From Bacteroidales bacterium Bact_19 (lineage in GTDB: Bacteria > Bacteroidota > Bacteroidia > Bacteroidales > ML635J-15): DNA of 64,000 nucleotides. The position numbers and the translations under genes were made by a program. The notes below the pieces were generated by a model, which was not told the DNA's origin, ran no database searches, and saw nothing but the letters and a program-made list of their open reading frames with translations. Below are positions 22,877 through 54,873 of the stretch, piece after piece (position 1 is the stretch's first letter; every line of letters starts with the position of its first letter). The stretch is from positions 22,115 to 86,114 of the forward strand of contig LUZK01000050.1 of NCBI GenBank assembly GCA_001603595.1. The letters are read 5' to 3'.

Positions 22877-23638
22877 CTACCAGTCTTTTTCAATGTCTCG
22901 TTTTTGGATTTTGAATTTTTCTTTATTTAACTTCTCCTGTAAATCTTTTTCCTTTTGTTGTAACGACTCCAGAAATCTTTCCATTTCTTCTTTGCTCATT
23001 TTATTGTCCTGTTGTTGAGGGGAGTCTTGTTGTTTTTTGTCTCTGTCTTTTTTGTCATTTTGGTTTTGATTATTATCTTTATTCTTATCTTGGTCTTTGT
23101 TGTCTTTGTTGTCTTTGTTGTCTTTGTTTTGCTGATTTTGTTGATTGTCTTGATTTTGATTGTTTTGATTTTGTTGCTGCTGTTGTTGAATTTTTGTTGC
23201 AACAGCCATATTGTATCTGCTTTTATCATGTGTTGGGTCTAACCTCAAAGCGTTTTTATATGCTTGAATACTTTTATTATACTCTTTTGCTTGAAGGTAA
23301 GAATTGCCAAGGTTATAAAATGCATCGGCTTTTTGTTTATTGTCAGTAATGTTTTTCAGATATACATCAAAGGAAGAAGCAGCGTCGTTAAAATTGTCAT
23401 TGCGGTAATTAGCAATACCTATATTATTATTTAGCTCCATTAAATCCGGATTAATTTCAGCAGCTTTTTTGTAGTTTAACAATGCCTGGTCAAAGTTTTT
23501 TTCTTTGAAATTTTTGTTTCCTTGCCTTATTATTTTTCGTTCTTCCTGAGCATTAGTTATATTTATAGCCATTATAAGCACGAGTGCAGGCAAACTTTGT
23601 AACAATATTATGTTAAATGATTTCATATTTGATATCAT
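22877..23638 (-). CDS. BatC-like TPR protein with Q/N/D/K-rich low-complexity tail
   Basis: 253 aa with a signal-like N-terminus and three TPR units (ALLNYKKAAEINPDLMELNNNIG, AFYNLGNSYLQAKEYNKSIQAYKNALRLDPTH). A QQQQQNQNNQNQDNQQNQQNKDNKDNKDNKD tract follows. The start overlaps the BatB stop, and it is the last gene of the Bat operon. Confidence 0.7.
   Translation of the reverse strand: MISNMKSFNIILLQSLPALVLIMAINITNAQEERKIIRQGNKNFKEKNFDQALLNYKKAAEINPDLMELNNNIGIANYRNDNFNDAASSFDVYLKNITDNKQKADAFYNLGNSYLQAKEYNKSIQAYKNALRLDPTHDKSRYNMAVATKIQQQQQQNQNNQNQDNQQNQQNKDNKDNKDNKDQDKNKDNNQNQNDKKDRDKKQQDSPQQQDNKMSKEEMERFLESLQQKEKDLQEKLNKEKFKIQKRDIEKDW
23093..23128 (-). repeat. In-frame 9-bp tandem repeat x4 (encodes NKD x4)
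   Basis: gtctttgtt is repeated exactly four times on the + strand (23093-23128), inside the low-complexity tail of the BatC-like gene. Confidence 0.9.
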
Positions 23639-24657
23639 TTTGTTTTAAATAGATTAATTTTCTTTAACCAATCATTTTTTCGTTCAGCGACAATAAAGTC
23701 TACACATAACAAAATTATTGCAGCAAGAATAAACCATTGGTATTTATCATCATATTCCGAGAATATTTGGTCAACAATTTCGCCTTTTTGGAGAGTTGAT
23801 ATTTCGCTGATGATTTTATCCGAGGCATCTGCTGAATTAGTAGCACGAACATAAATTCCATCTGTAAGTTTTGCAATTTGTTTGAGTGTTTCTTCGTCGA
23901 GTTTTGTCAATACAACATTTCCTTGACGGTCTTTTTTGAAACCGCCTCTTTTGTCGGGGATGGGAGCTCCGTCGGGATTACCGATTCCCACACAAAAAAC
24001 TTTAATCCCTTTTTCTTTTAACATCGAAGCAATTTCGGTGGGATTATCTTCGTGACTTTCACCATCAGTAATTAGTAAAATGAGTTTGGAAATATATTCT
24101 TCGCCGGAGAATGATTTAGAAGCAAGTTCAAGCGCTGAACCAATAGCTGTCCCTTGAACATTAATCATTTCAGGGCTGATTGAACTCAAAAACAATCTTG
24201 CAGCTTTAACATCTGAAGTTAATGGCATCTGAATAAAGGCTTCCCCTGCAAAAACAACAATTCCAAGTTTATCGTTTGAAAGTTTTGTGATAAGCCTTTC
24301 AATAAATCTTTTAGAATTTTCTAGTCTGTTAGGCTTTAAATCTTGAGCAAGCATTGAATTTGAAACATCGAGTGCAACAATGAGTTCAATTCCTTTTTTT
24401 GTTACTTCCGCATATTTACTTCCGGTTTGAGGGCGTGCCAAAGCCAATGAAATCATTATAATAGTCAGAGATATAACAATCAATTTCCATAGTCTTCGAG
24501 TGAAGCTGTAATCAGGAATTAGTTTTTCAAGAAGATTTTTATCTCCGATTTTTTTAATCTTGTTGCGCCTTGAAAGTTGTGCGAAAATAAAAAGTAAAAT
24601 TGGGACACTTATTAGTGTCATTAGCCATAGATATTGCGGAGCATAAAATCTGAACAT
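23635..24657 (-). CDS. batB: BatB-like von Willebrand factor A membrane protein
   Basis: 340 aa with N-terminal TM helices, a VWA domain with the MIDAS motif (ALDVSNSM), and a C-terminal TM helix (WFILAAIILLCVDFIV). Confidence 0.8.
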   Translation of the reverse strand: MFRFYAPQYLWLMTLISVPILLFIFAQLSRRNKIKKIGDKNLLEKLIPDYSFTRRLWKLIVISLTIIMISLALARPQTGSKYAEVTKKGIELIVALDVSNSMLAQDLKPNRLENSKRFIERLITKLSNDKLGIVVFAGEAFIQMPLTSDVKAARLFLSSISPEMINVQGTAIGSALELASKSFSGEEYISKLILLITDGESHEDNPTEIASMLKEKGIKVFCVGIGNPDGAPIPDKRGGFKKDRQGNVVLTKLDEETLKQIAKLTDGIYVRATNSADASDKIISEISTLQKGEIVDQIFSEYDDKYQWFILAAIILLCVDFIVAERKNDWLKKINLFKTK

Positions 24658-24659
24658 AA

Positions 24660-25652
24660 CTAAAATGTATTTTTTAATACTGTTAAACCTAATAATCTTT
24701 CAACAACTAACAGTAAAAGAGCAATTAGAGCAAAAAGCTTAAACTCTTCAACCGGTTTTGAAAATGATTTTACTTCGAGCTGAGTTTTTTCCATTGAGTC
24801 AATCTCTTTGTATATTTCTCTCATTTTTTCGTTATTAGTAGCTCTGAAATATTTTCCACCGGTCATTTCGGATATTTTTTTAAGAATGTCTTCATCAATT
24901 TTAACTTCAATATTTTGATATTGAATTCCGAAGGGAGTTTGAAAAGGATATGGAGCCATTCCGATTTTTCCCACACCTATTGTATAAACTCTTATACCAA
25001 ATTCTTTGGCAAATTCTGCAGCAGCAATAGGGGAAATATTTCCCATATTATTAACTCCATCTGTTAGCAAAATAATTACTTTACTTACAGCATTTGATTC
25101 TTTCAATCTGTTTACGGCTGTAGCAAGACCAAGCCCAATAGCTGTGCCATCTTCAATCATTCCACTTTTTACTTGGGAGAATAGGTTCATCAAAACGGCG
25201 TGGTCTATAGTTAAGGGACTCTGTGTAAAGGCTTCTCCTGAAAATACTACTAATCCGATGCGGTCATTTGGTCGTCCGTTGATAAATTCCATTGCAATTT
25301 GCTTACTTGCTTCGATGCGGTTAGGTTTAAAGTCTTCGGCAAGCATACTACCGCTTATGTCGAGAGCTATTACAATATCAACACCTTCTATTTTACGAGT
25401 TTCCCATCTATCGGTACGTTGCGGTCGGGCTAACGCAATTATTAATAATGATAAGGCGGAAATTTTTAAGATAAATAGTATATGCCTGAGATGGTATCTT
25501 AAGCTGTTTCCGTTGGTACTAAATGCACTTAACGTGCTAATACTCATGGCAGCCACAGACTTTTTAAGTCTCCATATATACCATGCAATTATTGGTATTA
25601 GCAACAAGAATAACCACAAATAGTTTTTATTTGCAAATTCTATATTATTCAT
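24660..25652 (-). CDS. batA: BatA-like von Willebrand factor A membrane protein
   Basis: 330 aa with two N-terminal TM helices, VWA MIDAS motif (ALDISGSM), and a C-terminal TM helix (LFALIALLLLVVERLL). Confidence 0.8.
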   Translation of the reverse strand: MNNIEFANKNYLWLFLLLIPIIAWYIWRLKKSVAAMSISTLSAFSTNGNSLRYHLRHILFILKISALSLLIIALARPQRTDRWETRKIEGVDIVIALDISGSMLAEDFKPNRIEASKQIAMEFINGRPNDRIGLVVFSGEAFTQSPLTIDHAVLMNLFSQVKSGMIEDGTAIGLGLATAVNRLKESNAVSKVIILLTDGVNNMGNISPIAAAEFAKEFGIRVYTIGVGKIGMAPYPFQTPFGIQYQNIEVKIDEDILKKISEMTGGKYFRATNNEKMREIYKEIDSMEKTQLEVKSFSKPVEEFKLFALIALLLLVVERLLGLTVLKNTF

Positions 25653-27048
25653 TTTCTTTTTTATCTTTTAATTCTTCGTTTTCGTTAATTTCTACCTCAA
25701 TTTCGGCGTCCAGTTTTTTTATCTTTTCGGAAATTTCTTCTATTTCTTTGGTATTATTAACAAAATTAAAGGCATTATCCAGTGCAAGATTGTTTTCATG
25801 TTGAAGAGCTTGATATTTTGCAAATTTTACTGCATCTGCCAATTCAAGAATTTGTTTTAAAATTTGAATGTTGTCGGATGATAGTGATTGTATGTTTTCT
25901 AAAGTTTCTAATGTTTCGGTAGTTGTCATTTCCGGGGAATTAATGCCAAAGCGTTTATCAATATATTCACGTATAGTGTCAGAAAGCATAGTGTGATATT
26001 CTTTAATCTGTCCCTTAGACCATAGTTTTTCTTTACGAATTTCTTCAAGTTTACGTAAAGCTATAACATGTGCAGGTTCTTCGGGTTTTATTCTAAATAT
26101 TTGAGTTTTTATTTTTCCGGATTGTTTTTTTATCAGATAAGTTATACCTACAATGGCTAAAATTAACAATAATATAAGCCACCAGTATTGCTTCAAGAAT
26201 TTTTTTAGATAATATATAAATTCTTTAAAAGTGAAGGGGGTATTGAATAGATTTTCTTCTATGTCTTTGATTCTGAAAACCGTAAACAATGCCTGGTTTT
26301 GTATTACTTTATCGAATTCTTTAACAAAAACAGTATCCACACTGCCCGGTACAGTATGTTCTTCAAGTATGCCTTCTCTGTCAACAATAAACATTTTTAA
26401 ATCTGAGGCTTCAACAATTTTTAAAATATCGTTTTGATTAATTATGCTTGTGTTTTGAGTAAGTTGCGATGAAAAAATATTTACAAGTTGTTCTTTTATT
26501 TTTTCGCTGATTTTTTGAAGGCTGTCTGCCGGCAAAGATTGCTTTAAAGAATCGGGGATATACTGTTCTATTTCTTTTTTGAATCCGTTTTTCCCAAATA
26601 CTACATAACCGGCTCTGTTTGCATATATTGTATCGCGAGGAATGGTGTCAATTAAAACAAAGGGTTTTACTTTAATTATGGCCTCATTTGTTTCAAAATT
26701 ATTTGTGTCGCCATTGCTTACAATTTTAATGATAATCGGATTGATTTTTACAATACCGGTATCGAAGCTGGTAATTAGATATGTTTTTTCTAAAAATTTA
26801 ATCCCGTTTTCGTCTGTTTCTTGCTCTTTTTTTTCAGCAATGATTTCAATATTTGAGTTAATTGTGTCTTTAAAAGCTGGGAAAATTATTTGTTTATTGT
26901 TTTTTTTGGGAACTTTGATTTTAAGTTGAATATGTTCGCCAACAATAATAGAATCCTTGTCCAGATTAATACTAATATTTTGCTGAGCTTGTGAAATTAA
27001 TCCAAATAAAAGAAAAATAAGTATTTGAAAAAAACGTGATGTTTTCAT
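25645..27048 (-). CDS. Bat-operon membrane protein: BatD-like N-terminal ectodomain fused to a DUF4381-like TM/C-terminal module
   Basis: 467 aa. Signal peptide, ~290-aa ectodomain, one TM helix (YWWLILLLILAIVGITYLI), then a region like DUF4381 (ALRKLEEI...EYHTMLSDTIREYIDKRFGINSPEMTTTE...LADAVKFAKY). It sits between the DUF58 and BatA genes. Confidence 0.55.
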   Translation of the reverse strand: MKTSRFFQILIFLLFGLISQAQQNISINLDKDSIIVGEHIQLKIKVPKKNNKQIIFPAFKDTINSNIEIIAEKKEQETDENGIKFLEKTYLITSFDTGIVKINPIIIKIVSNGDTNNFETNEAIIKVKPFVLIDTIPRDTIYANRAGYVVFGKNGFKKEIEQYIPDSLKQSLPADSLQKISEKIKEQLVNIFSSQLTQNTSIINQNDILKIVEASDLKMFIVDREGILEEHTVPGSVDTVFVKEFDKVIQNQALFTVFRIKDIEENLFNTPFTFKEFIYYLKKFLKQYWWLILLLILAIVGITYLIKKQSGKIKTQIFRIKPEEPAHVIALRKLEEIRKEKLWSKGQIKEYHTMLSDTIREYIDKRFGINSPEMTTTETLETLENIQSLSSDNIQILKQILELADAVKFAKYQALQHENNLALDNAFNFVNNTKEIEEISEKIKKLDAEIEVEINENEELKDKKENE

Positions 27049-27050
27049 AA

Positions 27051-27914
27051 TTATCTGTTTTTGAATAAAGCTATCAGTGGTCTTACATAATCATCAGATG
27101 TGCTTATATCCGTATTGTCAATTTTTAGTTTTTTGAAAATAGTTTTTGTATTTTGGTAATGGTTATTCCACCAGTTACGATATTGTTCTCTTATTGCTTT
27201 TTTACCGGTATCAATCCATTTCATTTTACCTGATTCAAGGTCGTTGAAGTAAGCAAGTCCGATATCAGGTAATTCTTTTTCAAATTTGTCGTAAATTCTT
27301 AGAGCAACAATGTCGTGCTTGTTAGCTGCAATTTTTAGAGCATCGGTGAAATCCGGAACGATAAAATCCGACATTATAAAAGCAGTACTTCTTTTCTTAA
27401 TGGCATTTGTAAAAAATTTCAATGCAACCTTTAAATCAGAACCTTTGTTTTCCGGTTCAAAATTTAATAATTCGAGAATAATTCTCAGTATATGTTTTCG
27501 TCCCTTTTTGGGTGGAATGAATTTTTCGATTTTGTCGCTGAAAAGTATTACGCCAATTTTATCATTATTTGTAATTGCAGAAAAAGAAAGTACAGCAGCA
27601 ATTTCCGTAATAATATCTTTTTTAAAATTGTTAACAGTTCCAAAGGATTTGGAGGCACTGACATCAATAAGCAGCATTACGGTGAGTTCTCGTTCTTCTT
27701 CAAATACTTTGACGTAAGGATGGTTGAAGCGAGCGGTAACATGCCAATCAATATCTTTAACTGGGTCTCCATATTGATATTCTCGCACTTCACTAAAAGT
27801 CATTCCTTTGCCTTTAAAAGCAGAATGGTATTCTCCGGCAAAAATTTGACGGGTGAGGCCTTTGGATTTAATTTCTATTTTTCTTACTTTTTTTAGTAAT
27901 TCGCTTGCTTCCAT
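27051..27914 (-). CDS. DUF58-family protein (MoxR-associated VWA-like)
   Basis: 287 aa. EVREYQYGDPVKDIDWHVTAR motif followed by LLIDVSASKS. Directly downstream of the MoxR ATPase gene. Confidence 0.85.
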   Translation of the reverse strand: MEASELLKKVRKIEIKSKGLTRQIFAGEYHSAFKGKGMTFSEVREYQYGDPVKDIDWHVTARFNHPYVKVFEEERELTVMLLIDVSASKSFGTVNNFKKDIITEIAAVLSFSAITNNDKIGVILFSDKIEKFIPPKKGRKHILRIILELLNFEPENKGSDLKVALKFFTNAIKKRSTAFIMSDFIVPDFTDALKIAANKHDIVALRIYDKFEKELPDIGLAYFNDLESGKMKWIDTGKKAIREQYRNWWNNHYQNTKTIFKKLKIDNTDISTSDDYVRPLIALFKNR

Positions 27915-27953
27915 AAAACTTAATTTTTGATTCAGATAAATACTATCTTAATT

Positions 27954-28949
27954 TTATGGAACTTCAACGCTATTAAGTATTGTGCTGACAATTTCTTCGG
28001 AAGTTATATTTTCTGCTTCTGCTTCATAGGTTAATCCGATACGATGGCGTAATACATCATGACAAACAGCTCTGACATCTTCGGGGATAACATATCCTCT
28101 GCGTTTAATGAAAGCATAAGCTTTTGATGCCAATGCCAGATTAATCGAAGCTCTTGGCGAACCTCCATAAGAAATAAGAGTTGAAAGTTTGGGCAGATTA
28201 TATTTTTCGGGATATCTGCTTGCAAAAACTATGTCGAGAATATATTTTTCAATTTTTTCGTCAAGATAAACTTCTCTAACAACATCACGAGCTTTTAAAA
28301 TATCTTCTGGTTTTATCACTGCATTTACTTGAGGTAGGGTTTTTTCAAGGTTTTCTCTTATGATAAGTTTTTCTTCGTCGTAATTTGGGTAATCAATTTT
28401 AATTTTAAGCATAAATCTGTCAACCTGAGCTTCAGGTAGGGGATATGTCCCTTCTTGTTCTATTGGGTTTTGTGTTGCCATCACCAAAAATGGCTCTGGA
28501 AGTTTATATGTTGATTCTCCGATGGTTACCTGACGTTCTTGCATTGCTTCGAGCAAAGCAGATTGAACTTTTGCCGGAGCACGGTTAATTTCGTCGGCAA
28601 GAATGAAATTTGTAAAAATTGGTCCTTTTTTAACAATAAATTCTTCTTTTTTCTGGCTGTAAATCATTGTACCTATTAAGTCGGCAGGTAACAAATCAGG
28701 TGTAAATTGAATCCTCGCAAAATTTGCATCAATAGATTGAGCAAGAGTTTTTATTGCTAGAGTTTTGGCTAATCCCGGCACTCCTTCCAATAAAATGTGT
28801 CCATCCGAAAGTAATCCAATCAACAATCCTTCGAGTAAGTGTTTTTGCCCGACAATTACTTTTTTTAACTCCATGTTGAGTATATCAACAAAAGCACTAT
28901 CACGTTGAATTTTTTCGTTTAATTCTTTAATGTCAATTCCTGTATTCAT
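27954..28949 (-). CDS. MoxR-family AAA+ ATPase
   Basis: 331 aa. Walker A LLEGVPGLAKT and Walker B ILADEINRA. First gene of the Bat operon. Confidence 0.9.
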   Translation of the reverse strand: MNTGIDIKELNEKIQRDSAFVDILNMELKKVIVGQKHLLEGLLIGLLSDGHILLEGVPGLAKTLAIKTLAQSIDANFARIQFTPDLLPADLIGTMIYSQKKEEFIVKKGPIFTNFILADEINRAPAKVQSALLEAMQERQVTIGESTYKLPEPFLVMATQNPIEQEGTYPLPEAQVDRFMLKIKIDYPNYDEEKLIIRENLEKTLPQVNAVIKPEDILKARDVVREVYLDEKIEKYILDIVFASRYPEKYNLPKLSTLISYGGSPRASINLALASKAYAFIKRRGYVIPEDVRAVCHDVLRHRIGLTYEAEAENITSEEIVSTILNSVEVP

Positions 28950-35232: not shown

Positions 35233-35751
35233 TTAAAATTCAATACCTTTTCGAGCATTAATACCTTTATTGTAATAATGTTTTATTTCTTTCATTTCTG
35301 TTACTAAATCGGCCAATTCATATAATTTTTCAGGAGCATATCGCCCTGTTAAAATAAGTTCTACTTTGATATTTTTAGAGGTTATCAAATTTTTTACATC
35401 ATTAAAACTTATAAGTTTAAAATAAAGAGCTATAAAAATTTCATCCAGTATAATAATGTCGTACACATCATTTTTAATTATAGATTTTACATAGTTCAAA
35501 CCCTCATTCGCTGCAATATAATCTTCTTTTTGAGGTTTTTTATTGATGAAACAATCTCTTCCAAATTGTTTGATGGTAATGTTTTCAAATAAATTTAGTG
35601 AAATAAGTTCTGCATAAGGCATTCCTTTAACAAATTGACCAATAAAAACTTTTTTACCGGCACCTATAGCCCTTACTGCTAAGCCCAAAGCAGCTGTTGT
35701 TTTACCTTTTCCATTACCCGTATAAATATGAACCAAGCCTTTATCTTCCAT
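35233..35751 (-). CDS. cobO: CobA/CobO/BtuR-type ATP:cob(I)yrinic acid a,c-diamide adenosyltransferase family protein
   Basis: 172 aa, collinear with the CobA family: HIYTGNGKGKTTAALG, GQFVKG, ILDEI, LTGRYAP, ADLVTEMKEIKH, GINARKGIEF. Overlaps the upstream MinD-like gene by 11 nt. Confidence 0.85.
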   Translation of the reverse strand: MEDKGLVHIYTGNGKGKTTAALGLAVRAIGAGKKVFIGQFVKGMPYAELISLNLFENITIKQFGRDCFINKKPQKEDYIAANEGLNYVKSIIKNDVYDIIILDEIFIALYFKLISFNDVKNLITSKNIKVELILTGRYAPEKLYELADLVTEMKEIKHYYNKGINARKGIEF

Positions 35752-36610
35752 AATTCATAATTATATTCAAAGCGTTTTTTAGTAACTTATTTATTTCATA
35801 ATCAGGCATATATTCGGGAATTGTTTTTTTGTTTATCATTGCTTTTACAACCTCTGGATCGAAAGGTAAACGGCATAAAAAATTTATATTATGTGATAGG
35901 CAGAATTCTTGAATCTTATTTGAAATTTCAGGATTTAAATCGCTTTTATTAATTATTACCCATGTTGTGAGATTAAATTTTGAGCATATTTCGATGGTGC
36001 GTTGTAGATCATTTAATCCAGACATACTTGGTTCTGTTACAATCACAACATGTTCAACGCCTGTGATGGTTGAAATTACAGGGCAACCTATACCCGGAGG
36101 TCCATCAATAATAATAGTTTCTATATTTTCTGCTTCTGCAATAGTTTTGGCTTTATCGCGAACCATGTTTACTAATTTACCTGAATTTTCTTCACCCGGG
36201 GCAAGGCGACCATAAACCATTTTTCCATTGCGAAATGTCCCTGTGTACATAAGGCTTTTATCGCTGTTAACCATACTAATAGCATTGGCAGGACAAATAC
36301 GTGAACAAAGTTTACATCCATCGCATGAAACTTCGGATATTGTTACTTTACTATTTACAAATGAAATAGCATCGAAACGACAATAACTGACACACAGCCC
36401 GCAATTATAACATTTTGAGTAGTCTATTATAGCTTTTTGACCGCCAATATATATCTGTTCTTCTTCGTGTGTAGGATTGAAAAGAATATATAAATTTGCA
36501 GCATCTACATCGCAATCAGCCAGAATAACTTTATCGGATAATGTTGCAAATGCAGCACTTATACTACTTTTACCTGTTCCGCCTTTACCGCTAATTACTG
36601 CTATTTCCAT
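35741..36610 (-). CDS. MinD/ParA-superfamily P-loop ATPase with inserted 2x[4Fe-4S] ferredoxin domain (paralogue B)
   Basis: 289 aa. Deviant Walker A SGKGGTGKSS. Insert with two CxxCxxCxxxC(P) motifs (CYNCGLCVSYC, CDGCKLCSRICP), then the rest of the MinD fold (IIDGPPGIGCP, VTEPS). Confidence 0.85.
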   Translation of the reverse strand: MEIAVISGKGGTGKSSISAAFATLSDKVILADCDVDAANLYILFNPTHEEEQIYIGGQKAIIDYSKCYNCGLCVSYCRFDAISFVNSKVTISEVSCDGCKLCSRICPANAISMVNSDKSLMYTGTFRNGKMVYGRLAPGEENSGKLVNMVRDKAKTIAEAENIETIIIDGPPGIGCPVISTITGVEHVVIVTEPSMSGLNDLQRTIEICSKFNLTTWVIINKSDLNPEISNKIQEFCLSHNINFLCRLPFDPEVVKAMINKKTIPEYMPDYEINKLLKNALNIIMNYGR

Positions 36611-37460
36611 ATTTTTCGACTATTGAGTTAAACATTGAAATAAAGTGCTGTTCCCATTCTTTTTTATATTTCACAAATAATTCCCCTTTTGAATAATGAG
36701 ATGCTATTTCTTTATCAAATGGAATTTCCATTAATATTGGAATGTTACATTGATTCAGATAATCGTAGATTTCGTTACCTCCTAGTCCTGAGCGGTTTAT
36801 AATGACTCCACATGGTTTATTCATGGTTTTTAGTGTATCAACAGATTGCTTCAAGTCACTTAATCCAAAAGGTGTTGGTTCGGTAACAAGTATTACATAA
36901 TCTGCAGTGGCAACTGTTTGTATAAATGGACAAGAGGTTCCCGGCGGGGAATCAAGAATTATAATTCCTTCATTCCCCGTTTCTTTTACAGCTGCTTTTA
37001 TAACAGGAACTGGCGACATAACACCAATTTTCATTTTGGCTTCAACAATTGTTGAGCTTTTATTAAAATAAAAACGGCTTATAGTACCAAGAGAAACCTC
37101 TTTTTCGCTAATTGCATCAAACTTACAAGCGACGGAACAGGCGCCACATCCATGGCAAAGATCTTCAATTACTTTAATTATTTTAGCAGAAGGTAAGATG
37201 AAAATAGCATTGTAATTGCAAAATTCGTGGCATTTGCCACAATATGTGCATTTGCTTTCGTTTATTACGGGAACTTTCTGGTTTACATCAAAAGTTTTCT
37301 CTACCTTACCTTTAAAAAATATCATGTCATTTGGCTCTTCTGCATCGCAATCAACAAGAAAACAATTCTTAATATTTTGCTTGCTAATTGAATAAAACAA
37401 GTTAGTAGAGACTAAAGTCTTACCTGTGCCCCCTTTTCCGCTGGCAATAGCAATTTTCAT
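36591..37460 (-). CDS. MinD/ParA-superfamily P-loop ATPase with inserted 2x[4Fe-4S] ferredoxin domain (paralogue A)
   Basis: 289 aa. SGKGGTGKTL. Insert CTYCGKCHEFC and CHGCGACSVAC. ILDSPPGTSCP, VTEPT. Overlaps paralogue B by 20 nt. Confidence 0.85.
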   Translation of the reverse strand: MKIAIASGKGGTGKTLVSTNLFYSISKQNIKNCFLVDCDAEEPNDMIFFKGKVEKTFDVNQKVPVINESKCTYCGKCHEFCNYNAIFILPSAKIIKVIEDLCHGCGACSVACKFDAISEKEVSLGTISRFYFNKSSTIVEAKMKIGVMSPVPVIKAAVKETGNEGIIILDSPPGTSCPFIQTVATADYVILVTEPTPFGLSDLKQSVDTLKTMNKPCGVIINRSGLGGNEIYDYLNQCNIPILMEIPFDKEIASHYSKGELFVKYKKEWEQHFISMFNSIVEKYGNSSN

Positions 37461-37470
37461 AAAATATTCA

Positions 37471-38823
37471 TTAAAATTTAATTTTGGCAGCTACCATTTC
37501 AGCAGCTTTGATTATTGGATAAGCAGCTGGCGAAGCAGTTAAACATGGATGTGTACCTATTTGAGAAGTCAGTAAAGTACTAATAGTCATTCGATTTTGA
37601 ATGATAATGCCAATAACGTTTGTGAGTTCACCCGCACTTAAACCGCCAATTACTTCACCACCAACAATTACACCTGATTGTTTTGCTACAATTAGTTTTA
37701 CAATTTGTTTCTTTGTATCGGGCATGTTTCCGGGATGACGATCAACCCCTTCGAAAATAGCTGAAACGATGTTAATGCCTTCTTCTTTTGCTCTTCTTTC
37801 AGTAATTCCTGCAGTACCAAATCCATGTCCATCAATAGCTGTGCTATATATACTAATTGTTCCACTAAAAGTTTTTACAATATTAATTCCGAATAAATTC
37901 ATCCCACATACACGAGCTTCAGCACATGCCGTTGAAGCAAGCATGGTAGGTACTCTTTTACGAGTAATAAAATCACGTTTTTGGGCACAGTCGCCAACGG
38001 CGAAAATATCTTTTTCATGGGTACGCATATATTCATCTACGACGATATAATTACTTTCATCTAAATAAATCCCTGATTTTTTTGCAAGTTCTGTGTTAGG
38101 TTGATATCCCATAGATAATATTACAGCATCAGCGTCCAGAATAGTGTCGTTTTCTAATTTTACCTTTTCAACTTTTGTATTTCCTATAATTTCTTTAACG
38201 CCATTTCCGGTAATTAACTTAATACCACGATTTTTAATTATTTCTTCTATTTTAGAAGCGACTTCTTCATCGAAAGCAGAAGCAAGAATTGTTTTTTCCT
38301 TTTCAATTAAGGTTACATCATGACCGCTTTTCGCCAATTCGTCTGAAACTTCAACTCCAATAAAGCCGGCACCAATAACTACAACTTTTTTCAATCCGGA
38401 AATTTTGCTTTTCATCTCATCAAGATAAGTTTTATCTTTTGGGATAACAAAGAAATTTTCGAGATTTGTTCCTTTTAACCATTTAGGAACGATAGGAATA
38501 GAACCTGTTGCAATTACAAGTTTATCGTATTTTATTTCTTCACCGCTTATAAGTTTTGCGATCTTTGTGTTTTTGTCAATACTAACTACTTCATTAACAA
38601 TAGATTCAATGCCTGCTTTTGCTAGCATATTATCAACCGGCATAATGTTTAATTGACTGCTATTAAGCGTTCCGAAAATGTATGGAATGCCGCAAGGAAC
38701 CATTACATCTTTTTGCTTTTTAATCAAAATAAAACTTTTATCGCTCCATGACGATTTCCCTGTTAAAGCGGCTACCATTCCGGCAGCACTTCCACCAATA
38801 ACTAATACATCTGTGTTTTTCAT
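37471..38823 (-). CDS. FAD-dependent pyridine-nucleotide-disulfide oxidoreductase, single-Cys NADH oxidase/CoA-disulfide-reductase type
   Basis: 450 aa. FAD dinucleotide fold VLVIGGSAAG. Candidate redox Cys in VPCGIPY. NAD(P)H fold VVVIGAGFIGVE. FAVGDCA motif. Confidence 0.8.
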   Translation of the reverse strand: MKNTDVLVIGGSAAGMVAALTGKSSWSDKSFILIKKQKDVMVPCGIPYIFGTLNSSQLNIMPVDNMLAKAGIESIVNEVVSIDKNTKIAKLISGEEIKYDKLVIATGSIPIVPKWLKGTNLENFFVIPKDKTYLDEMKSKISGLKKVVVIGAGFIGVEVSDELAKSGHDVTLIEKEKTILASAFDEEVASKIEEIIKNRGIKLITGNGVKEIIGNTKVEKVKLENDTILDADAVILSMGYQPNTELAKKSGIYLDESNYIVVDEYMRTHEKDIFAVGDCAQKRDFITRKRVPTMLASTACAEARVCGMNLFGINIVKTFSGTISIYSTAIDGHGFGTAGITERRAKEEGINIVSAIFEGVDRHPGNMPDTKKQIVKLIVAKQSGVIVGGEVIGGLSAGELTNVIGIIIQNRMTISTLLTSQIGTHPCLTASPAAYPIIKAAEMVAAKIKF

Positions 38824-38862
38824 AATATTAAATTTTTAAATGTTGTATTTTTAAACTATAAA

Positions 38863-39606
38863 TTATTTATGATGCAAAATGATAAACATTATGGCAATAC
38901 CTAATAAAATAAAAATTAATTGAAGCACTGAATTTTTTAACCCAGTTTTTTTATGCATTTCAGGAGTAAGGTCTGCTAACGAGACATAGATAAATCCAGC
39001 AGCCGAAAAGGCCAATATGTATGGTAAAAGTACTTTAGTATTGGCAAAAACAAAATATGTTATAATACCCCCAATGATGCTCATACTTGCCGCCAATAAA
39101 CTTAGGAAGAATGTTTTTGATTTTGAATAGAAGTGGTTTAATAAAACACCAAATTCTCCGAATTTTTTGGGTACTTCATGCGAAAAAACTGAAATAGCCA
39201 TAAACCATCCGAGTTCTGTAGAAGTTAAAAAGGCGGTTCCAATTAAAACTCCATCAATGATATTATGAAAACCTCCTCCTATCAATATCAATGGGGCAGT
39301 TGCTTCAGAGTGTCTTTCGCAATCTTTGTTTCCACACATTCGCCAAAGCACAATTTTTTCGAGCAAGAAGAAAAACAACAATCCAATTAAAACTGTTTGC
39401 AAAACAGGAACAGGTGTTAATTTATTCATTGCTTTTGGTAATATTCCTAAAAACGCGGCACCTAATAAAACACCACCGGCTAAGTAAGATAAATAGAGAG
39501 CAATTTTATCAATGTTTTTGGTTTTTAAGAAAAATAAACTGGTAGCTATAAATACACTCCCCATGTTTGCTATGATTGCTGCTGCGATAATAAAAACTAG
39601 TTCCAT
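38863..39606 (-). CDS. ZIP-family divalent metal transporter
   Basis: 247 aa, polytopic. Signatures HNIIDGVLIG and HEVPKKFGEFGVL. Cys/His loop CGNKDCERHSE. Confidence 0.8.
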   Translation of the reverse strand: MELVFIIAAAIIANMGSVFIATSLFFLKTKNIDKIALYLSYLAGGVLLGAAFLGILPKAMNKLTPVPVLQTVLIGLLFFFLLEKIVLWRMCGNKDCERHSEATAPLILIGGGFHNIIDGVLIGTAFLTSTELGWFMAISVFSHEVPKKFGEFGVLLNHFYSKSKTFFLSLLAASMSIIGGIITYFVFANTKVLLPYILAFSAAGFIYVSLADLTPEMHKKTGLKNSVLQLIFILLGIAIMFIILHHK

Positions 39607-39609
39607 AAT

Positions 39610-40461
39610 TTATAAATTTTTGTTATACACAACAAAACTGTTCTTTTCAAGATTAAGTTTTTCGGCAATGAAATCGCATTTTACCATCAGCAAGAAAAAA
39701 ATCCGATCATCGTTTTCATTCATCAATCCCTCATAATTCCCCTGTCCCTTTGAAATAATTAAATCAGCCGAATTGTAAACCTCAAGAAAGTTTTTGCTGC
39801 ATTTATTTAAAACTGTTGAAGGAGCATCGTATCCGTTTGAAATTATCTCTGCAACTAACTCCATTCCAACTTCTTTAGCATCTGTGGTTGTTACATCGTT
39901 CAATACTGGTGCTCCTTTAACAGCATAAAAAACTTTGCGAGGTAACATTGTTTTAATTAAAAGCTTGTCAAAAACTATTTCTCCTGCAATGTCGCCTAAA
40001 TACAAAATCCTTTCGGCTCTTTTTATTTTGTTCTGAAGAAGTTCTGAATGGTCAATAGCAAACGATGCAGTTAAAACAGCTTGGATCGTTTCTTCTATAT
40101 TGAAGTTATTATTTGCCCCATAATCAATAATATTTCCGGCAATGGAAAGTCGAAGTGCTAAATCAAAGGGATTTGCCGATGAAAAGATTATTGGTTTCCA
40201 TTTGCTGTATATATCTAATGCTATACTATTACTCTTTCTCTTTTCTTCTTTATAAAGATCAGATACATTAATAATTTTACAGAAACCATTATTCAGCTCC
40301 CTTTGTATCTCGGGACTTGACAGATGCTTTTTCTTATTGATTACCTCTTGATAAAAAGACATGAACTGCTGACGGTGATTTATACCAACGTTAAACTTTT
40401 CAAACAAGCGTTTATAAGAGTTAAGGAAACAACTTTTACAACGCTCATCTGTTTCATTCAT
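39610..40461 (-). CDS. DUF89 / ARMT1-type damage-control phosphatase family protein
   Basis: The track ORF starts at 40524 and would overlap the NifX-like gene by 59 nt. The ATG at 40461 (MNETDERCKSCF...) begins 4 nt after that gene's stop. GDIAGEIVFD and ISKGQGNYE motifs fit DUF89. Confidence 0.7.
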   Translation of the reverse strand: MNETDERCKSCFLNSYKRLFEKFNVGINHRQQFMSFYQEVINKKKHLSSPEIQRELNNGFCKIINVSDLYKEEKRKSNSIALDIYSKWKPIIFSSANPFDLALRLSIAGNIIDYGANNNFNIEETIQAVLTASFAIDHSELLQNKIKRAERILYLGDIAGEIVFDKLLIKTMLPRKVFYAVKGAPVLNDVTTTDAKEVGMELVAEIISNGYDAPSTVLNKCSKNFLEVYNSADLIISKGQGNYEGLMNENDDRIFFLLMVKCDFIAEKLNLEKNSFVVYNKNL

Positions 40462-40465
40462 CCGC

Positions 40466-40837
40466 TTAATGTTGGCAATTCCCGTGTTCATGGGTTCCAT
40501 CGTGATTGCAATAGTTAGCCTCAAGACTTAACTTGTTGGCTAAAAAATCGGTAACAAGCTCTTTTGCAGTTTTTACGGGTGCTCCAACAAAAGCATTAAT
40601 GTTTTGTTTATTGAACAGCATAATTGCTTGTTGTCCCATACCACCAGCAATAACATCGGTTACGCCAAATTGAGCAATCCATCTAGGATATAAACCGGGG
40701 ACATGTTCCGGTGGTATTACTTCTTTGATATCAGTTATTACATTATTTTCAACATTTACTATAGCGAACGTTTGACAATGCCCAAAATGAGCACATAATA
40801 CTCCGTTTTCTAACGGAATGGCAATAATTTTTTTCAT
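40466..40837 (-). CDS. NifX/NifB-C-terminal-like (dinitrogenase FeMo-cofactor-binding fold) protein with His/Cys-rich tail
   Basis: 123 aa. MKKIIAIPLENGVLCAHFGHCQTFAIV...VIAGGMGQQAI matches the NifX/NifB/Y fold family pattern. The C-terminal tail is NYCNHDGTHEHGNCQH. Confidence 0.75.
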   Translation of the reverse strand: MKKIIAIPLENGVLCAHFGHCQTFAIVNVENNVITDIKEVIPPEHVPGLYPRWIAQFGVTDVIAGGMGQQAIMLFNKQNINAFVGAPVKTAKELVTDFLANKLSLEANYCNHDGTHEHGNCQH

Positions 40838-40841
40838 ACTG

Positions 40842-41552
40842 TTATTTTTTCAAAAGTTTTTTAAAAATAGTTTCTTTATCAATCTTTTTGGTACAGAAGA
40901 ACCAATCGTAACATTTTATATTCTCGTCTTTGCTTTCCATTCTCTCTTTTGCAATACCACAAGAACCAGCAGTAGGAACAATAACATCATCTCCGGGTTG
41001 CCAATCTGCTGGTGTTGCTACGTTAAATTTATCTGCTGCTTGCAATGCTATGATTATACGATACAATTCTTCAAAATTACGACCTAAACTTGATGGATAA
41101 TATATAATAGCTCTAATAATTCCTTTGGGGTCAATTACAAACACCGCACGAACAGCTTTAGTGTTGCTCTCTCCGGGCATTATCATTCCGTATTTTTGAG
41201 CCACTTCCATGGTTATATCTTCAATCAAGGGAAATGTTACTTCAACATTTTTCATTCCTTTGTACTCAATCTTTTCTTTGATGGTTCTTAGCCATGCAAT
41301 ATGACTGTATAGTCCATCAACAGATAGACCTACTAGTTTACAATTTGCTTCATTGAATTTTGCTTCCATTGTGGCAAAAGTCATAAACTCCGAAGTGCAA
41401 ACTGGTGTAAAATCAGCAGGATGACTAAAAAGGATAACCCAACTTCCTTTGTAATCTGAAGGAAAATTAATTTCTCCTTGTGTTGTTACTGCTTTAAATT
41501 CTGGAGCCATTTCACCTATGCGAGGCATTGAAAATTTTTCTTGATTTTCCAT
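40842..41552 (-). CDS. Peroxiredoxin (Prx6/1-Cys-like subfamily)
   Basis: 236 aa. Peroxidatic Cys in HPADFTPVCTSEF, and the typical WLRTI / FVIDP core. Confidence 0.9.
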   Translation of the reverse strand: MENQEKFSMPRIGEMAPEFKAVTTQGEINFPSDYKGSWVILFSHPADFTPVCTSEFMTFATMEAKFNEANCKLVGLSVDGLYSHIAWLRTIKEKIEYKGMKNVEVTFPLIEDITMEVAQKYGMIMPGESNTKAVRAVFVIDPKGIIRAIIYYPSSLGRNFEELYRIIIALQAADKFNVATPADWQPGDDVIVPTAGSCGIAKERMESKDENIKCYDWFFCTKKIDKETIFKKLLKK

Positions 41553-41587
41553 AATAAGAATTTTTAATGATTAAACTGTTTTCTGAA

Positions 41588-41623
41588 AATAACGAGAGGA
41601 ATTTTTATTAACCTCTCGTTATT
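41588..41623 (-). terminator. Rho-independent terminator after the DUF5320 gene
   Basis: Perfect 12-bp stem, aataacgagagg (41588-41599) pairing with cctctcgttatt (41612-41623), with a 12-nt loop. On the minus strand the 3' arm runs into TTATTTT. Lies 8 nt past the stop at 41631. Confidence 0.65.
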
Positions 41624-41630
41624 ATTATTA

Positions 41631-41879
41631 TTATTGTCCGCTTCTGAAACGATTTTGTCGTCCCATTCCCATTCCTCTTCCTCTTTTGCCTCTACCAAGA
41701 CCCAAACCTCTTCCAAAACCAAATCCCTGAATATTCTCAGAATCGTTTTTGCTTGGATCTTCATAGGCAATTGTAGCAGATTGATTTTTAAGATTTGCAC
41801 CGAAATTGGTACAACGTCCCATCCTTCGGCCTGTCATAGGACCTTGTCCGTTAGGGCCTGTTTGATTAAAACCTGGCAT
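41631..41879 (-). CDS. DUF5320-family small Gly/Arg-rich protein
   Basis: 82 aa. MPGFNQTGPNGQGPMTGRRMGRC resembles the conserved DUF5320 N-terminus (…GDGTGP.G.GP.TGRG.G.C). Gly/Arg-rich tail. Preceded by a strong AGGAGG ribosome-binding site. Confidence 0.6.
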   Translation of the reverse strand: MPGFNQTGPNGQGPMTGRRMGRCTNFGANLKNQSATIAYEDPSKNDSENIQGFGFGRGLGLGRGKRGRGMGMGRQNRFRSGQ

Positions 41880-41884
41880 AATGA

Positions 41885-41890
41885 CCTCCT
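41885..41890 (-). promoter_or_regulatory. Canonical Shine-Dalgarno (AGGAGG) 5 nt upstream of the DUF5320 start codon
   Basis: The minus strand reads aaaaAGGAGGtcattATG. No comparable SD was seen upstream of the other genes I inspected in this window. Confidence 0.5.
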
Positions 41891-42075
41891 TTTTAAATTG
41901 TTAATATTATTGTTTCCCGTTTTTTATCGTTCTCCTTTTTTTTTTGACACATCTGGCATTAATTCTTTTAACTATTACTTTACACAGTTTTGTAATTTTT
42001 TAATAAACTGTTGCATTGCTGCAATTTACTAATTTACGACCAGAATTAGTGCCAAGTCCTTCAGGACTTCTACCA

Positions 42076-42417
42076 TCAAGCTTTGGAATTGTTTAAATTT
42101 AAATGGTTCAACATTTCTATAATTTCTCGAATTTTCTTTTCAGGTTCTTTTAGAACAATCATTTGAATTTTTAAGCTATCTAACAACGATTTTATTTTCA
42201 TTCCGAATTCACCAGATACAATTTTACTAACATTGCGAGAAGCAACTAACTGCACTGATGCAGGACCGGCTCCTTCTTCTGCATCTTTATTCGGATTGGG
42301 AATAAATTCAATGGCTTTGCTTTCTATGTCGTAAATCACAAAGTAAGCACAACGACCAAAACGTTGATCGATTGTTGATTCTAATGAATCCCCTGTTGAT
42401 GTAATGGCAACTTTCAT
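42076..42417 (-). CDS. NifX/NifB-C-terminal-like (FeMo-cofactor-binding fold) protein
   Basis: 113 aa. MKVAITSTGDSLESTIDQRFGRCAYFVIYD...VSGEFGMKI fits the same family. Starts 1 nt after the DUF134 gene stop. Confidence 0.75.
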   Translation of the reverse strand: MKVAITSTGDSLESTIDQRFGRCAYFVIYDIESKAIEFIPNPNKDAEEGAGPASVQLVASRNVSKIVSGEFGMKIKSLLDSLKIQMIVLKEPEKKIREIIEMLNHLNLNNSKA

Positions 42418-42418
42418 A

Positions 42419-43012
42419 TTATTGATTTTTAAAATTTCTGCAATTTTTACTTCCTTTTCTTTTCATAAAACTATTACATTTTTGACAAATTTGTGTGCTA
42501 CACGGCTGTCCGAATTGATGTTCTTGTTCAAACCCGCATTCAGGGCATATACACATATCATAACATGCCTTATTAATAGTGTCTGTTTTGTTGTTCTCAT
42601 AATCAAATTTATCAATCTGTTGATTTCCACAAAGTGGACAATTAATAACAGAATTTTCTTTTTCAGGATTATTGAAGTAACAGCCACATTTTTTACAATG
42701 GTACCAGTCGCTGTCGAAATAAACTTTACCTCCTTCAATAGAAATTTGTCTCCCTTCAACAAAAGCCTTAGCAATTTTTTGAAGAGCAGATGCATATATT
42801 CTTGTAAAGGTTGGTCTGGAAACTCCCATCATAACAGATGCCTGATAATGATTAAGCATGTCATAGTCGCTTAGACGTATAGCTTCATATTCCTCATAAA
42901 ATAAATTAATCGGCTCCAATTTTTGATTTCCTAATTCTAAACCATAAGGATTAAAACCCTTAACAACTGGTGGATCTGAAACTTTTCTTATTATTTTTAT
43001 TCTTGGAGTCAT
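42419..43012 (-). CDS. DUF134 (UPF0251) predicted DNA-binding protein with C-terminal double zinc-ribbon extension
   Basis: The track ORF starts at a TTG (43027); the ATG at 43012 gives MTPRIKIIRKV... The DUF134 core is F.PYG....EPINLFYEEYEAIRLSDYDMLNHYQASVMMGVSRPTFTRIYASALQKIAKAFVEGRQISIEGG. The extension has four CxxC pairs (CKKCGC...CPLCG; CICPEC...CQKC). Confidence 0.8.
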   Translation of the reverse strand: MTPRIKIIRKVSDPPVVKGFNPYGLELGNQKLEPINLFYEEYEAIRLSDYDMLNHYQASVMMGVSRPTFTRIYASALQKIAKAFVEGRQISIEGGKVYFDSDWYHCKKCGCYFNNPEKENSVINCPLCGNQQIDKFDYENNKTDTINKACYDMCICPECGFEQEHQFGQPCSTQICQKCNSFMKRKGSKNCRNFKNQ

Positions 43013-43022
43013 ATTACAAATA

Positions 43023-43058
43023 AACAATAGTTCGATACAAAGATAATGAACTATTGTT
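43023..43058. promoter_or_regulatory. Operator-like 11-bp perfect inverted repeat bracketing the putative -7 promoter box of the DUF134 gene
   Basis: aacaatagttc (43023-43033) and gaactattgtt (43048-43058) are exact reverse complements with a 14-nt spacer. On the minus strand the spacer contains TATCTTTG (43038-43045), which matches TAnnTTTG, 26 nt upstream of the ATG. Confidence 0.45.
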
Positions 43059-43435
43059 CATAAAACAAATTATTTTAAGTGTCTTATTAAAAAATTATAT
43101 AAAATATTTAATTTTGAATATTATGGTCTTATTTAATTTGGTGAAATTTAAATTAATTCAAAAATGAGAAATTAATGAAGATGATAAATTTATTAAATAA
43201 ATAATTTAGCTCATTTATGTGCAAATGTATTTTCATGATGTGTAATTAATTTTTTAGTATTAAAGAGTTATTATGGTCATTAGATATTGAGTAGGTTATA
43301 AAATTTAGTATTTACTTTTTTCCTAACTTTTATCTCTAATATATTCAAAATAGATGAATAAAATAAGCGGACATCAAAATTTTACTGGATTTTAGATTTA
43401 CATTAAGAATGATTTTTTATAAATAGTTTATTTAT

Positions 43436-53491: not shown

Positions 53492-54865
<1,374 letters not shown>

Positions 54866-54873
54866 TTATTTTT

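Follow-up and report, generated by a model that had tools for sequence, protein, structure and literature searches.

The question raised by a 64,000-nucleotide stretch of DNA from Bacteroidales bacterium Bact_19 (contig LUZK01000050.1), here called the window, is what a block of eleven closely packed genes on its minus strand does for its host. The block spans 35233-43012 in a six-frame list of open reading frames (ORFs) and encodes a DUF134 helix-turn-helix protein, two NifX-like proteins (A and B), a small DUF5320 protein, a peroxiredoxin (Prx), a DUF89 phosphatase, a ZIP metal transporter, a FAD oxidoreductase, two MinD-type P-loop ATPases with a ferredoxin insert (MinD-Fd ATPases A and B) and a CobA-type adenosyltransferase. 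Judged from these sequences, this is the orange protein (ORP) module of anaerobes in a Bacteroidales version. It is here proposed, with slightly better than even confidence, that this module works as an ATP-gated machine for the assembly, holding or delivery of Fe-S clusters or related metalloclusters, an Fe-S machine being favored because of the Mrp, NifU, NifX-fold, radical-SAM and Cys-rich proteins encoded in its neighborhoods. An earlier reading of the letters and ORFs without database searches (the sequence-only reading) had described the same eleven-ORF minus-strand block with its gaps and overlaps, which the ORF list bears out, and all of its family names are backed by Pfam and NCBIfam profiles. 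Its gene content for the block also stands; its upper limit of 43058 does not, since DUF134 most likely starts at the ATG at 43012 and that limit falls upstream of the start codon, inside the promoter/operator.

The two ATPases, A (36591-37460) and B (35741-36610), both on the minus strand like every gene of the block, are 30% identical to each other and are likely heterodimer partners. Each has a deviant Walker A motif and two [4Fe-4S] motifs, the eight Cys of the insert being invariant, and A is the counterpart of Orp3/Orp4 of Desulfovibrio vulgaris. In an alignment of 41 diverse members, the invariant positions are the Walker A SGKGGxGK, D37/D39/E41 (a DxDxE switch-I-like motif), the eight cluster Cys and the switch II DxPPG, and a ninth Cys, C177, just past switch II, is near-invariant. 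A protein identical to ATPase A is found on JGI and ENA metagenome contigs together with the same eleven genes; its nearest named relatives are in Tenuifilaceae/Bacteroidales, with at most 76% identity for a named genome, and in Ignavibacteriales (67%).

The pointer to the ORP complex is the match of NifX B (40466-40837; PF02579, 56 bits) to the NCBIfam MrpORP model NF041136, which covers model positions 265-365 with an E-value of 3.6e-31 (108.8 bits against a cutoff of 450). Its closest solved relatives are TM1290 (1T3V/1O13, 9e-13), which shares a His-rich C-terminal tail with it, and PH0822 (2YX6). NifX B itself bears a His/Cys tail, and among 65 sequences of this type B the conservation of H17 (100%), H20 and C21 (82%), H45 (80%) and C110 (98%) makes these residues candidate ligands, in keeping with the Fe-S cluster that the homologous domain of MrpORP binds (PMC6345978). 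NifX A (42076-42417; PF02579, 62.6 bits) has as its closest solved relatives TM1816 (1RDU, 4e-11) and MTH1175 (1EO1, 1e-9), matches the orange protein of Desulfovibrio gigas (2WFB) with an E-value of 1.5e-8, and is thus a putative small cofactor or cluster carrier of the ORP/Orp8-like, TM1816/MTH1175-like type. No conserved Cys or His ligands are found in the type A alignment, which is counted as neutral because ORP holds its cluster non-covalently. The nifX equivalog TIGR02663 gives 18.7 bits against a cutoff of 112 for a NifX-like protein of the block, and most of the loci surveyed below have one gene of each type. The DUF5320 protein (41631-41879; PF17253, 39.6 bits) aligns with profile positions 1-54 of 99, that is, with the N-terminal half of the model only; the consensus of 56 homologues shows a conserved N-terminus, MPxxxxTGPxGxGPMTGRxxGxC, followed by an Arg/Gly-rich tail.

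The ORP complex has been studied in D. vulgaris, where each of the paralogues Orp3 and Orp4 has two [4Fe-4S] ferredoxin motifs, and Orp9 (MrpORP) is a Mrp/NBP35 ATPase fused to a NifX-like domain, each domain binding an Fe-S cluster (PMC6345978). Orp8 is the orange protein, with the Mo-Cu-S cluster [S2MoS2CuS2MoS2] (as cited in PMC6345978). Orp3, Orp4 and Orp8 co-purify and take Fe-S clusters from MrpORP in vitro (PMC6345978), and MrpORP is localized to the cell pole (PMC8359166, PMC6345978). The two orp operons require sigma-54 and OrpR, whose PAS domain has a redox-sensitive [4Fe-4S] cluster and which turns the operons off as the redox potential rises; loss of OrpR changes the cell shape (PMC8359166). 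A link to molybdo-enzymes has been proposed in a study of Archaeoglobus (PMC3949148). The sequence-only reading had known of no experimental function for the gene set, and this is superseded, as the core of the block is that of the D. vulgaris ORP cluster, for which co-purification, Fe-S transfer, control by OrpR and an effect on morphology have been published (PMC6345978, PMC8359166). Literature searches on DUF134, DUF5320 and the COG numbers found nothing on this neighborhood, and one apparent match to DUF134 actually concerned DUF1349.

Like orp3-orp4-orp5 / orpR / orp7-orp8-orp9 of D. vulgaris, the block has two adjacent paralogous MinD-type ATPases with two [4Fe-4S] motifs each, an ORP-type NifX-fold protein, and a second NifX unit similar to the C-terminal domain of MrpORP; both systems are confined to anaerobes and have at the locus a dedicated Cys-rich regulator that probably senses redox state or metal. 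In contrast to D. vulgaris, the profile scan of the 64-kb window found neither a fused MrpORP nor any Mrp gene, but just a domain of the C-terminal type standing alone. Instead of a sigma-54 activator, none of which lies in or next to the block, there is a DUF134 protein with a Cys6-His module; instead of sigma-54 promoters there is a Bacteroidetes housekeeping-type -33/-7 promoter with two palindromes; and a single strand carries all the genes, where D. vulgaris has two divergent operons. The genes for DUF5320, DUF89, Prx, ZIP, the oxidoreductase similar to CoA-disulfide reductase (CoADR) and CobA are additions relative to the D. vulgaris cluster. The Bacteroidales block is a lineage variant that differs in its regulator, in its Mrp, which is unfused or absent, and in five added genes.

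How far the module extends beyond this genome was surveyed by searching ATPase A with HMMER against 1.84 billion cluster representatives, of which 575 clusters match at E <=1e-30. A separate scan that covered a single genome for each GTDB species yielded 80 loci, from Bacteroidota, Desulfobacterota, Dehalococcoidia, Planctomycetota, Clostridia, Omnitrophota and Zixibacteria among the bacteria, and from Methanothrix, Methanocellaceae, Bathyarchaeia, Thermoplasmatota, Altiarchaeota, Thorarchaeota and Heimdallarchaeota among the archaea. Neighbors were annotated with profiles that were made from the window proteins and then iterated over the 80 loci, and densities are given as hits per 10 kb at <4 kb from the ATPase pair vs >6 kb away. 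The iterated radical-SAM and Mrp profiles had drifted onto the ferredoxin ATPases, which was corrected by best-family assignment and motif counting.

The ATPase genes are adjacent in 78 of the 80 species, and in 74 of 77 loci A precedes B, the usual overlap being 4 nt. Around the pair, NifX proteins are found in 73/80 species (2.9 vs 0.07 per 10 kb), Mrp in 41/80 (0.77 vs 0.04), DUF5320 in 34/80 (0.84 vs 0.04), DUF89 in 21/80 (0.39 vs 0) and radical-SAM enzymes in 18/80 (0.33 vs 0), while DUF134/Cys6 proteins reach 1.04 vs 0; the enrichment of the conserved partners near the pair is 10- to 40-fold. These densities bear out the earlier statement that MinD-Fd, NifX, DUF134 and DUF5320 recur as a neighborhood in strict anaerobes, and they put the arrangement far outside what chance would give. 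Unbiased clustering of the remaining neighbor ORFs added NifU_N scaffolds (22 loci), Zn_ribbon_8 proteins (18 loci) and a metallo-beta-lactamase-fold protein (14 loci). With Mrp in 41/80 and NifU_N in 22/80, the general idea of an ATP-dependent metallocluster system is upheld, and it fits the biochemistry of MrpORP (PMC6345978). OrpR-like sigma-54 activators are present in 11 loci, all of Desulfobacterota or Planctomycetota, where the usual pattern is EBP ~ X-Mrp-NifU-MF-MF-X-X.

Fusion proteins also speak for the proposed module. As gene calls, A-B tandem fusions of ~600 aa account for ~35 of the best 150 cluster representatives, NifX-ATPase fusions are found in P0182 and P0208, and a DUF89-ATPase fusion in P0213. 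An ATPase-methyltransferase fusion is also among the predicted fusion proteins (P0182, P0208, P0213, P0145 and the tandem A-B forms). DUF89 lies directly upstream of the pair in Bacteroidota, Planctomycetota, Omnitrophota, Thermoplasmatota and Methanocellaceae and, given its 21/80 species and its fusion protein, is a widespread component of the module. In the window it is a DUF89/ARMT1 subfamily I metal-dependent phosphatase (39610-40461; PF01937, 192 bits), which matches the archaeal subfamily I structures 2G8L (1.8e-39) and 2FFJ (1.3e-27) and misses the NCBIfam equivalogs (184 vs 440). Its start is ambiguous, the ATG at 40461 leaving a 4-nt gap and the longer options lying at 40491, 40500 and 40524, and gene callers disagree on it in identical metagenome contigs.

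The remaining enzymes of the block have a different standing. The 1-Cys (Prx6-type) peroxiredoxin (40842-41552) matches PF00578 with 110 bits as well as 1-cysPrx_C, reaches 338.5 bits in NF009668 against a cutoff of 211 and has the peroxidatic motif PVCTSE. The ZIP-family divalent metal transporter (38863-39606) matches PF02535 with 121 bits. The single-Cys FAD/NAD(P)H oxidoreductase (37471-38823; Pyr_redox_2, 207 bits, and Pyr_redox_dim) has the active-site stretch VPCGIPY, scores 250 bits against a cutoff of 458 in the CoADR models, and reaches no equivalog cutoff; its closest PDB entries, 6PFZ, 4FX9 and 8A56, are NoxA-3, CoADR and CoA-persulfide reductase, so that by sequence it belongs to the CoA-disulfide reductase / NADH oxidase / persulfide reductase group. 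The CobA/BtuR-type ATP:corrinoid adenosyltransferase (35233-35751; PF02572, 213 bits) is a short form, passes TIGR00708 (169.8 vs 167.75) and NF004637 (204.4 vs 185), has the P-loop TGNGKGKTT and aligns to residues 26-196 of Salmonella CobA, the positions of Phe91 and Trp93 being read as Cys and Ile. Activity is reported for short archaeal CobA enzymes, so CobA activity may be compatible with the short form and the Cys/Ile pair.

In the survey, Prx and CobA were each found in 4/80 species (0.06 vs 0.04 per 10 kb for both), ZIP in 4/80, CGGC proteins in 5/80 and the CoADR-like reductase in 16/80 (0.22 vs 0.11, about twofold). The sequence-only reading had given all eleven genes equal standing, which these counts do not sustain: being rare outside Bacteroidales, Prx, ZIP, the FAD reductase and CobA are treated as accessories, and they are lineage-specific additions outside the conserved module. 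The close relatives have a backbone in the order DUF134 - NifX A - DUF5320 - NifX B - (DUF89) - (CGGC) - ATPase A - ATPase B (Pfam neighborhoods). An Ignavibacteriales genome has the six core genes only. Tenuifilaceae CYCD adds DUF89, CGGC, HdrB/C-like, OsmC, Mrp, ferritin and the same 1-Cys peroxiredoxin, and three more Bacteroidales genomes have Prx, ZIP, CobA, ferritin, radical-SAM and CoADR-like reductase genes at shifting positions; related Bacteroidales also have an unfused Mrp inside the cluster. In the window and in loci L009 and L010 the Prx gene lies between those for DUF5320 and NifX B; in L005 and L011 it is downstream, and in L017, L033 and L045 it is upstream. ZIP is also in the cluster in L009, L045 and L047, and CobA follows the pair directly or closely in L009, L011, L012, L013 and L061, right behind ATPase B or behind a radical-SAM gene. 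In two loci the module stands beside genes of sulfur metabolism, namely DsrE, TusA, FlpD and HdrA-like genes (L005:1-5320) and a Cys/Met-metabolism PLP (pyridoxal phosphate) enzyme (L011:10347-11522); the DsrE/TusA and PLP-enzyme neighbors hint at a link to sulfur supply.

It may be asked whether the accessories take part at all. That only the six to seven conserved genes form the module, with Prx, ZIP, the FAD reductase and CobA as housekeeping or stress neighbors and the expanded form without mechanistic meaning, is considered unlikely, with these points in its favor: the accessories found in 4/80 species are nearly as dense far from the pair as close to it (0.06 vs 0.04), the FAD reductase shows only about a twofold enrichment, the peroxiredoxin scores above its equivalog cutoff, and a CobA that passes curated cutoffs can be an ordinary corrinoid adenosyltransferase. 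However, the accessory genes stay in the neighborhood of the relatives while their positions shift, which indicates selected linkage and not frozen synteny, and a Desulfobacterales locus is independently arranged as MF-MF-X-X-FADOR-CobO. In the window, moreover, they are packed with gaps of 3-39 nt or with overlaps, and no canonical promoter lies between them.

The genes of the block form two groups, unit 1 with 1 nt between DUF134 and NifX A and 196 nt between NifX A and DUF5320, and, 78 nt after DUF5320, unit 2, which starts with Prx and has gaps of 4, 4, 3, 39 and 10 nt followed by overlaps of 20 nt (ATPases A/B) and 11 nt (ATPase B/CobA). The promoter and operator (43022-43069, minus strand) lie directly upstream of the DUF134 ATG at 43012. 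They were found with TTTG-N19-21-TAnnTTTG, which we take to be the Bacteroides promoter consensus, and comprise a -33 TTTG (43066-43069), a 20-nt spacer and the -7 box TATCTTTG (43038-43045). This full match is the only one on the minus strand of the eleven-gene block and one of five in the window, and the scan found no canonical promoter ahead of unit 2. A sigma-70 consensus scan gave 42 sites vs 49 in shuffles, this consensus being uninformative for a Bacteroidetes genome.

The promoter spacer is occupied by a palindrome, GAACAATAGTTC (site 1, 43048-43059), and a second one, GAACTATTGTTT (site 2, 43022-43033), lies in the opposite orientation over the expected transcription start; the window has no further site with <=2 mismatches. 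The layout of promoter and palindromes is kept upstream of DUF134 in at least eleven other loci (L005, L006, L010, L012, L022, L024, L025, L027, L035, L042 and L055) and also in L018. In general form the operator is a palindrome of 12-16 bp, ATGAAC-N4-GTTCAT or ATGAGAATATTCTCAT, with one copy in the spacer and the second at the transcription start. Within a locus both sites change together: the window and L010 have GAACAATAGTTC in both places, L042 has GAGAATATTCTC in both, and L018 has ATCAAATGTTC along with GAACATTTGAT. Autoregulation by the DUF134 of each locus would be the simplest reading of this co-variation.

The DUF134 protein (42419-43012; 197 aa from the ATG, with an alternative TTG upstream at 43027) matches PF02001 with 71 bits over residues 9-102, and its C-terminal half has twelve cysteines, in a CxxCxC...CxxC stretch and a Cys6-His module, CICPECG-x5-H-x3-GQPC-x4-CQKC, which makes it a putative metal- or redox-sensing autoregulator. 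The module forms the last ~40 residues (within 42419-42560, minus strand), matches no Pfam family above threshold, and is homologous to stand-alone proteins of 55-90 aa encoded 1-30 bp upstream of ATPase pairs in Dehalococcoidia, Desulfobacterota and several archaea (e.g., L043:354-584, L063:9365-9541, L090:1408-1611), in which an RG-rich DUF5320-like N-terminus precedes CxCPxCG-x3-PH-x3-GxPC-x4-CPxCG. With a split profile, the DUF134 helix-turn-helix is present in 34/80 loci, the Cys6 module in 41/80 and the two fused in 16, the fusion being found in Bacteroidota and Ignavibacteria; an initial count of DUF134 in 48/80 loci was rejected, as the unsplit query had mixed the helix-turn-helix domain with the Cys6 module. 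The promoter with co-varying palindromes, the uncatalogued Cys6-His module fused to DUF134, and the DUF89-ATPase and NifX-ATPase fusions are apparently new.

Between the units, 3' of DUF5320, is the hairpin that the sequence-only reading had called a terminator (41588-41623, minus strand), and it is real: its 12-nt arms (41588-41599 / 41612-41623) are perfectly complementary, with a 12-nt loop and ATTTTC after them, and a consensus terminator scan missed it because of its loop limit of 8. Non-homologous hairpins with a T run occupy the same place after DUF5320 in L009, L010, L012, L014 and L045, which makes a partial terminator, or attenuator, between units 1 and 2 plausible. An Rfam scan of 34-44 kb (E <=1) gave no match. 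The unusually long 196-nt gap (41880-42075, minus strand) contains a 13-nt long-range inverted repeat (41954-41966 / 42042-42054); nothing in Rfam matches the gap, its folding is barely better than that of shuffles (z -1.7), and no riboswitch is claimed.

From these elements, the following mechanism is proposed. From Bacteroidota to Asgard archaea, the conserved core consists of a likely A/B heterodimer, with two [4Fe-4S] clusters per ATPase in the insert beside the nucleotide switch, together with a type A (ORP-like) and a type B NifX carrier (similar to the C-terminal domain of MrpORP, with His/Cys ligands) and a DUF5320 or Cys6 protein. In many lineages it is joined by an Mrp carrier, a scaffold of the NifU type, the DUF89 phosphatase and a radical-SAM enzyme. 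By binding and hydrolyzing ATP, A/B may gate the transfer of electrons or of whole clusters between the ferredoxin inserts and the NifX-fold carriers, and through this transfer clusters would be built, held or re-delivered to client proteins in strict anoxia. In the window, transcription would start from the single Bacteroidetes promoter, whose two palindromes DUF134 may bind, its Cys-rich tail sensing metal or redox state, and the hairpin after DUF5320 would reduce the expression of the eight downstream genes. The lineage would have recruited ZIP, the 1-Cys peroxiredoxin, the CoADR/persulfide-reductase-like flavoenzyme and CobA into the same transcription context, where they probably supply metal, sulfur or reductant and also shield or repair oxygen-sensitive cofactors: ZIP and ferritin may serve in metal supply or buffering, the flavoenzyme in sulfur or reductant delivery, Prx in peroxide removal and CobA in corrinoid adenosylation. 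Gene content, conservation, fusions, the kept promoter and operator and the homology to ORP components are observations, whereas the way in which clusters or electrons flow, the clients, what DUF134 does and the link to stress are inferred; the tie to oxidative stress in the sequence-only reading likewise stems from gene content only.

Several observations weigh against this proposal. The orp operons are repressed at raised redox potential (PMC8359166), a poor fit with oxidative repair, and this repression in D. vulgaris also goes against a simple picture of induction by oxidative stress. For no ORP complex has an experiment established a cellular function, the sole reported phenotype being an altered cell morphology that was read as a role in division (PMC8359166), and the purified orange protein holds Mo-Cu-S, not Fe-S (as cited in PMC6345978). 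The 64-kb window has no Mrp, NifU or cysteine desulfurase gene. Because Prx, ZIP and CobA are found in 4/80 species each, their involvement may be one of regulatory convenience only, and DUF134 remains a putative ligand of the palindromes. In addition, the survey counts come from home-built iterated profile hidden Markov models, six-frame ORFs and truncated contigs and are approximate lower bounds.

A bolder version of the proposal, held with low confidence, sees A and B as a low-potential reductase similar to the nitrogenase Fe protein, which with both NifX carriers, DUF89, the DUF5320/Cys6 proteins and, in many lineages, a radical-SAM enzyme would build or repair an unidentified metallocofactor that strict anaerobes of both domains share and that is other than the standard [4Fe-4S] cluster. 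In the Bacteroidales variant this process would be linked with metal import and peroxide stress and controlled by a DUF134-Cys6 sensor-regulator of a new class. The module resembles NifH with NifX/NafY/NifB-C in having a presumably dimeric Fe-S nucleotide-switch ATPase beside NifX-fold carriers, often with a radical-SAM enzyme nearby, and ATPase A matches the folds of NifH and BchL with a TMq of 0.57-0.59. Unlike nitrogenase, it has no NifD/K/E/N-like partner, its clusters are in the ferredoxin insert and do not bridge the dimer, and its radical-SAM neighbor has no match to NifB. As the sequence-only reading had said, there are neither nif genes nor other cobalamin genes among the window ORFs examined.

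A further alternative, judged improbable, is that the ATPases load and unload NifX carriers with heterometal clusters of the thiomolybdate or thiotungstate type, for Mo/Cu storage, detoxification or delivery to molybdo-enzymes. It draws on the homology of NifX A to ORP, the native form of which has [S2MoS2CuS2MoS2] (cited in PMC6345978), on the binding of FeMo-co precursors by NifX-fold proteins in nitrogen fixers (Pfam PF02579 description), on the molybdo-enzyme link suggested in Archaeoglobus (PMC3949148) and on the metal importer of the window. Yet among the recurrent neighbors in the 80 loci there are no molybdenum, tungsten or copper genes, including those for molybdate transport and molybdopterin, whereas NifU_N and Mrp do recur. 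Nor are ZIP proteins known to transport oxyanions.

The polar localization of MrpORP and the morphology defects after OrpR inactivation in D. vulgaris (PMC8359166, PMC6345978) could instead suggest that the MinD-like ATPases serve in positioning or cell division, a role first put forward for the Desulfovibrio ORP complex, with their Fe-S inserts making division redox-responsive. This is regarded as quite improbable, although the nearest solved folds are MinD, FleN and Soj/ParA. The AlphaFold2 model of ATPase A (pLDDT 96) superposes equally well on MinD, FleN, Soj, the ATPase-type HypB, ApbC, Cfd1, NifH and BchL (Foldseek, TMq 0.5-0.6), and neither the PDB search nor Foldseek of this model matched a solved structure with the ferredoxin insert. 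As the fold fits MinD/ParA and metal or cluster ATPases alike, it alone cannot choose between them. The ATPases give only 37-48 bits in the MinD equivalog TIGR01968 (cutoff 212.9) and 58-68 bits in the MinD-related TIGR01969 (cutoff 201.75), and no minC, minE or other division genes are recurrent near the pair in the 80 loci. A metal or cluster ATPase is favored over a positioning one because of the neighbors, which are Mrp, NifU scaffolds, NifX-fold carriers, radical-SAM and small Cys-rich proteins.

With the Mrp/NBP35/ApbC/Cfd1 carriers the pair shares the SIMIBI P-loop fold, the deviant Walker A GKGGxGK and genetic ties to Fe-S scaffolds and carriers. It differs from them in lacking the C-terminal CxxC bridging motif (PMC6345978) and in having the two-cluster insert and a single Cys past switch II. 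No CxxC is found outside the ferredoxin insert in the MinD-Fd proteins, the single near-invariant C177 being there instead, and the ATPases score far under the cutoffs of the ApbC and MrpORP models, the latter being matched weakly. Finally, that the pair is an ATP-dependent reductase of Co(II) to Co(I) corrinoid for CobA, making the cluster a corrinoid activation system, can hardly be credited: the CobA reaction needs a strong reductant, and the CobA gene overlaps that of ATPase B by 11 nt and follows the pair in several relatives and one Desulfobacterales locus, but CobA accompanies the pair in only 4/80 species, the core is kept in many genomes without it, and no other corrinoid genes are among the window ORFs examined.

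The rest of the window has a gene content that fits an anaerobic member of Bacteroidales, with PorP/SprB proteins of type IX secretion, with GldB and with an operon for Bat aerotolerance proteins. The Bat-type operon (22877-28949, minus strand), ~6 kb downstream of the cluster, encodes a MoxR AAA_3 protein, a DUF58/VWA protein, an unassigned 467-aa protein, the VWA proteins BatA and BatB and a TPR protein; a UvrD-like helicase, a methyltransferase and CinA are encoded between the operon and the cluster. On the plus strand, 53510-60912 encodes an NADP glutamate dehydrogenase, NuoE-like and NuoF-like proteins and a 1220-aa GltD-/NuoG-/formate-dehydrogenase-like fusion, a set that resembles an NADH-linked, soluble and possibly bifurcating oxidoreductase. 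Another candidate for two MinD-Fd genes with a FAD reductase, at 55.4-60.9 kb, was rejected, as only ferredoxin motifs matched (E ~1e-9) and the genes are those of the NuoF-like protein and the GltD/NuoG/Fdh-like fusion. A 476-aa protein with a C-terminal AhpC/TSA thioredoxin-like domain (13561-14991, minus strand) adjoins an 806-aa protein without a Pfam match, and in 6059-12932 (plus strand) three PorP/SprF paralogues in tandem follow a SprB-repeat protein of 1302 aa that has a CHU_C signal for type IX secretion.

Few gene sets of strict anaerobes with an unassigned cellular role are conserved as widely as the ORP module. By tying the Bacteroidales cluster to the work on Desulfovibrio, an orphan neighborhood gains an experimental anchor, and the A-B gene order, the DUF89 and NifU_N partners, the fusions, the Cys6-His module and the palindromic operator offer concrete handles on it. 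If the reading as an Fe-S trafficking or repair system is true, it would bear on how Fe-S enzymes are kept up in the oxygen-sensitive anaerobes of guts and digesters.

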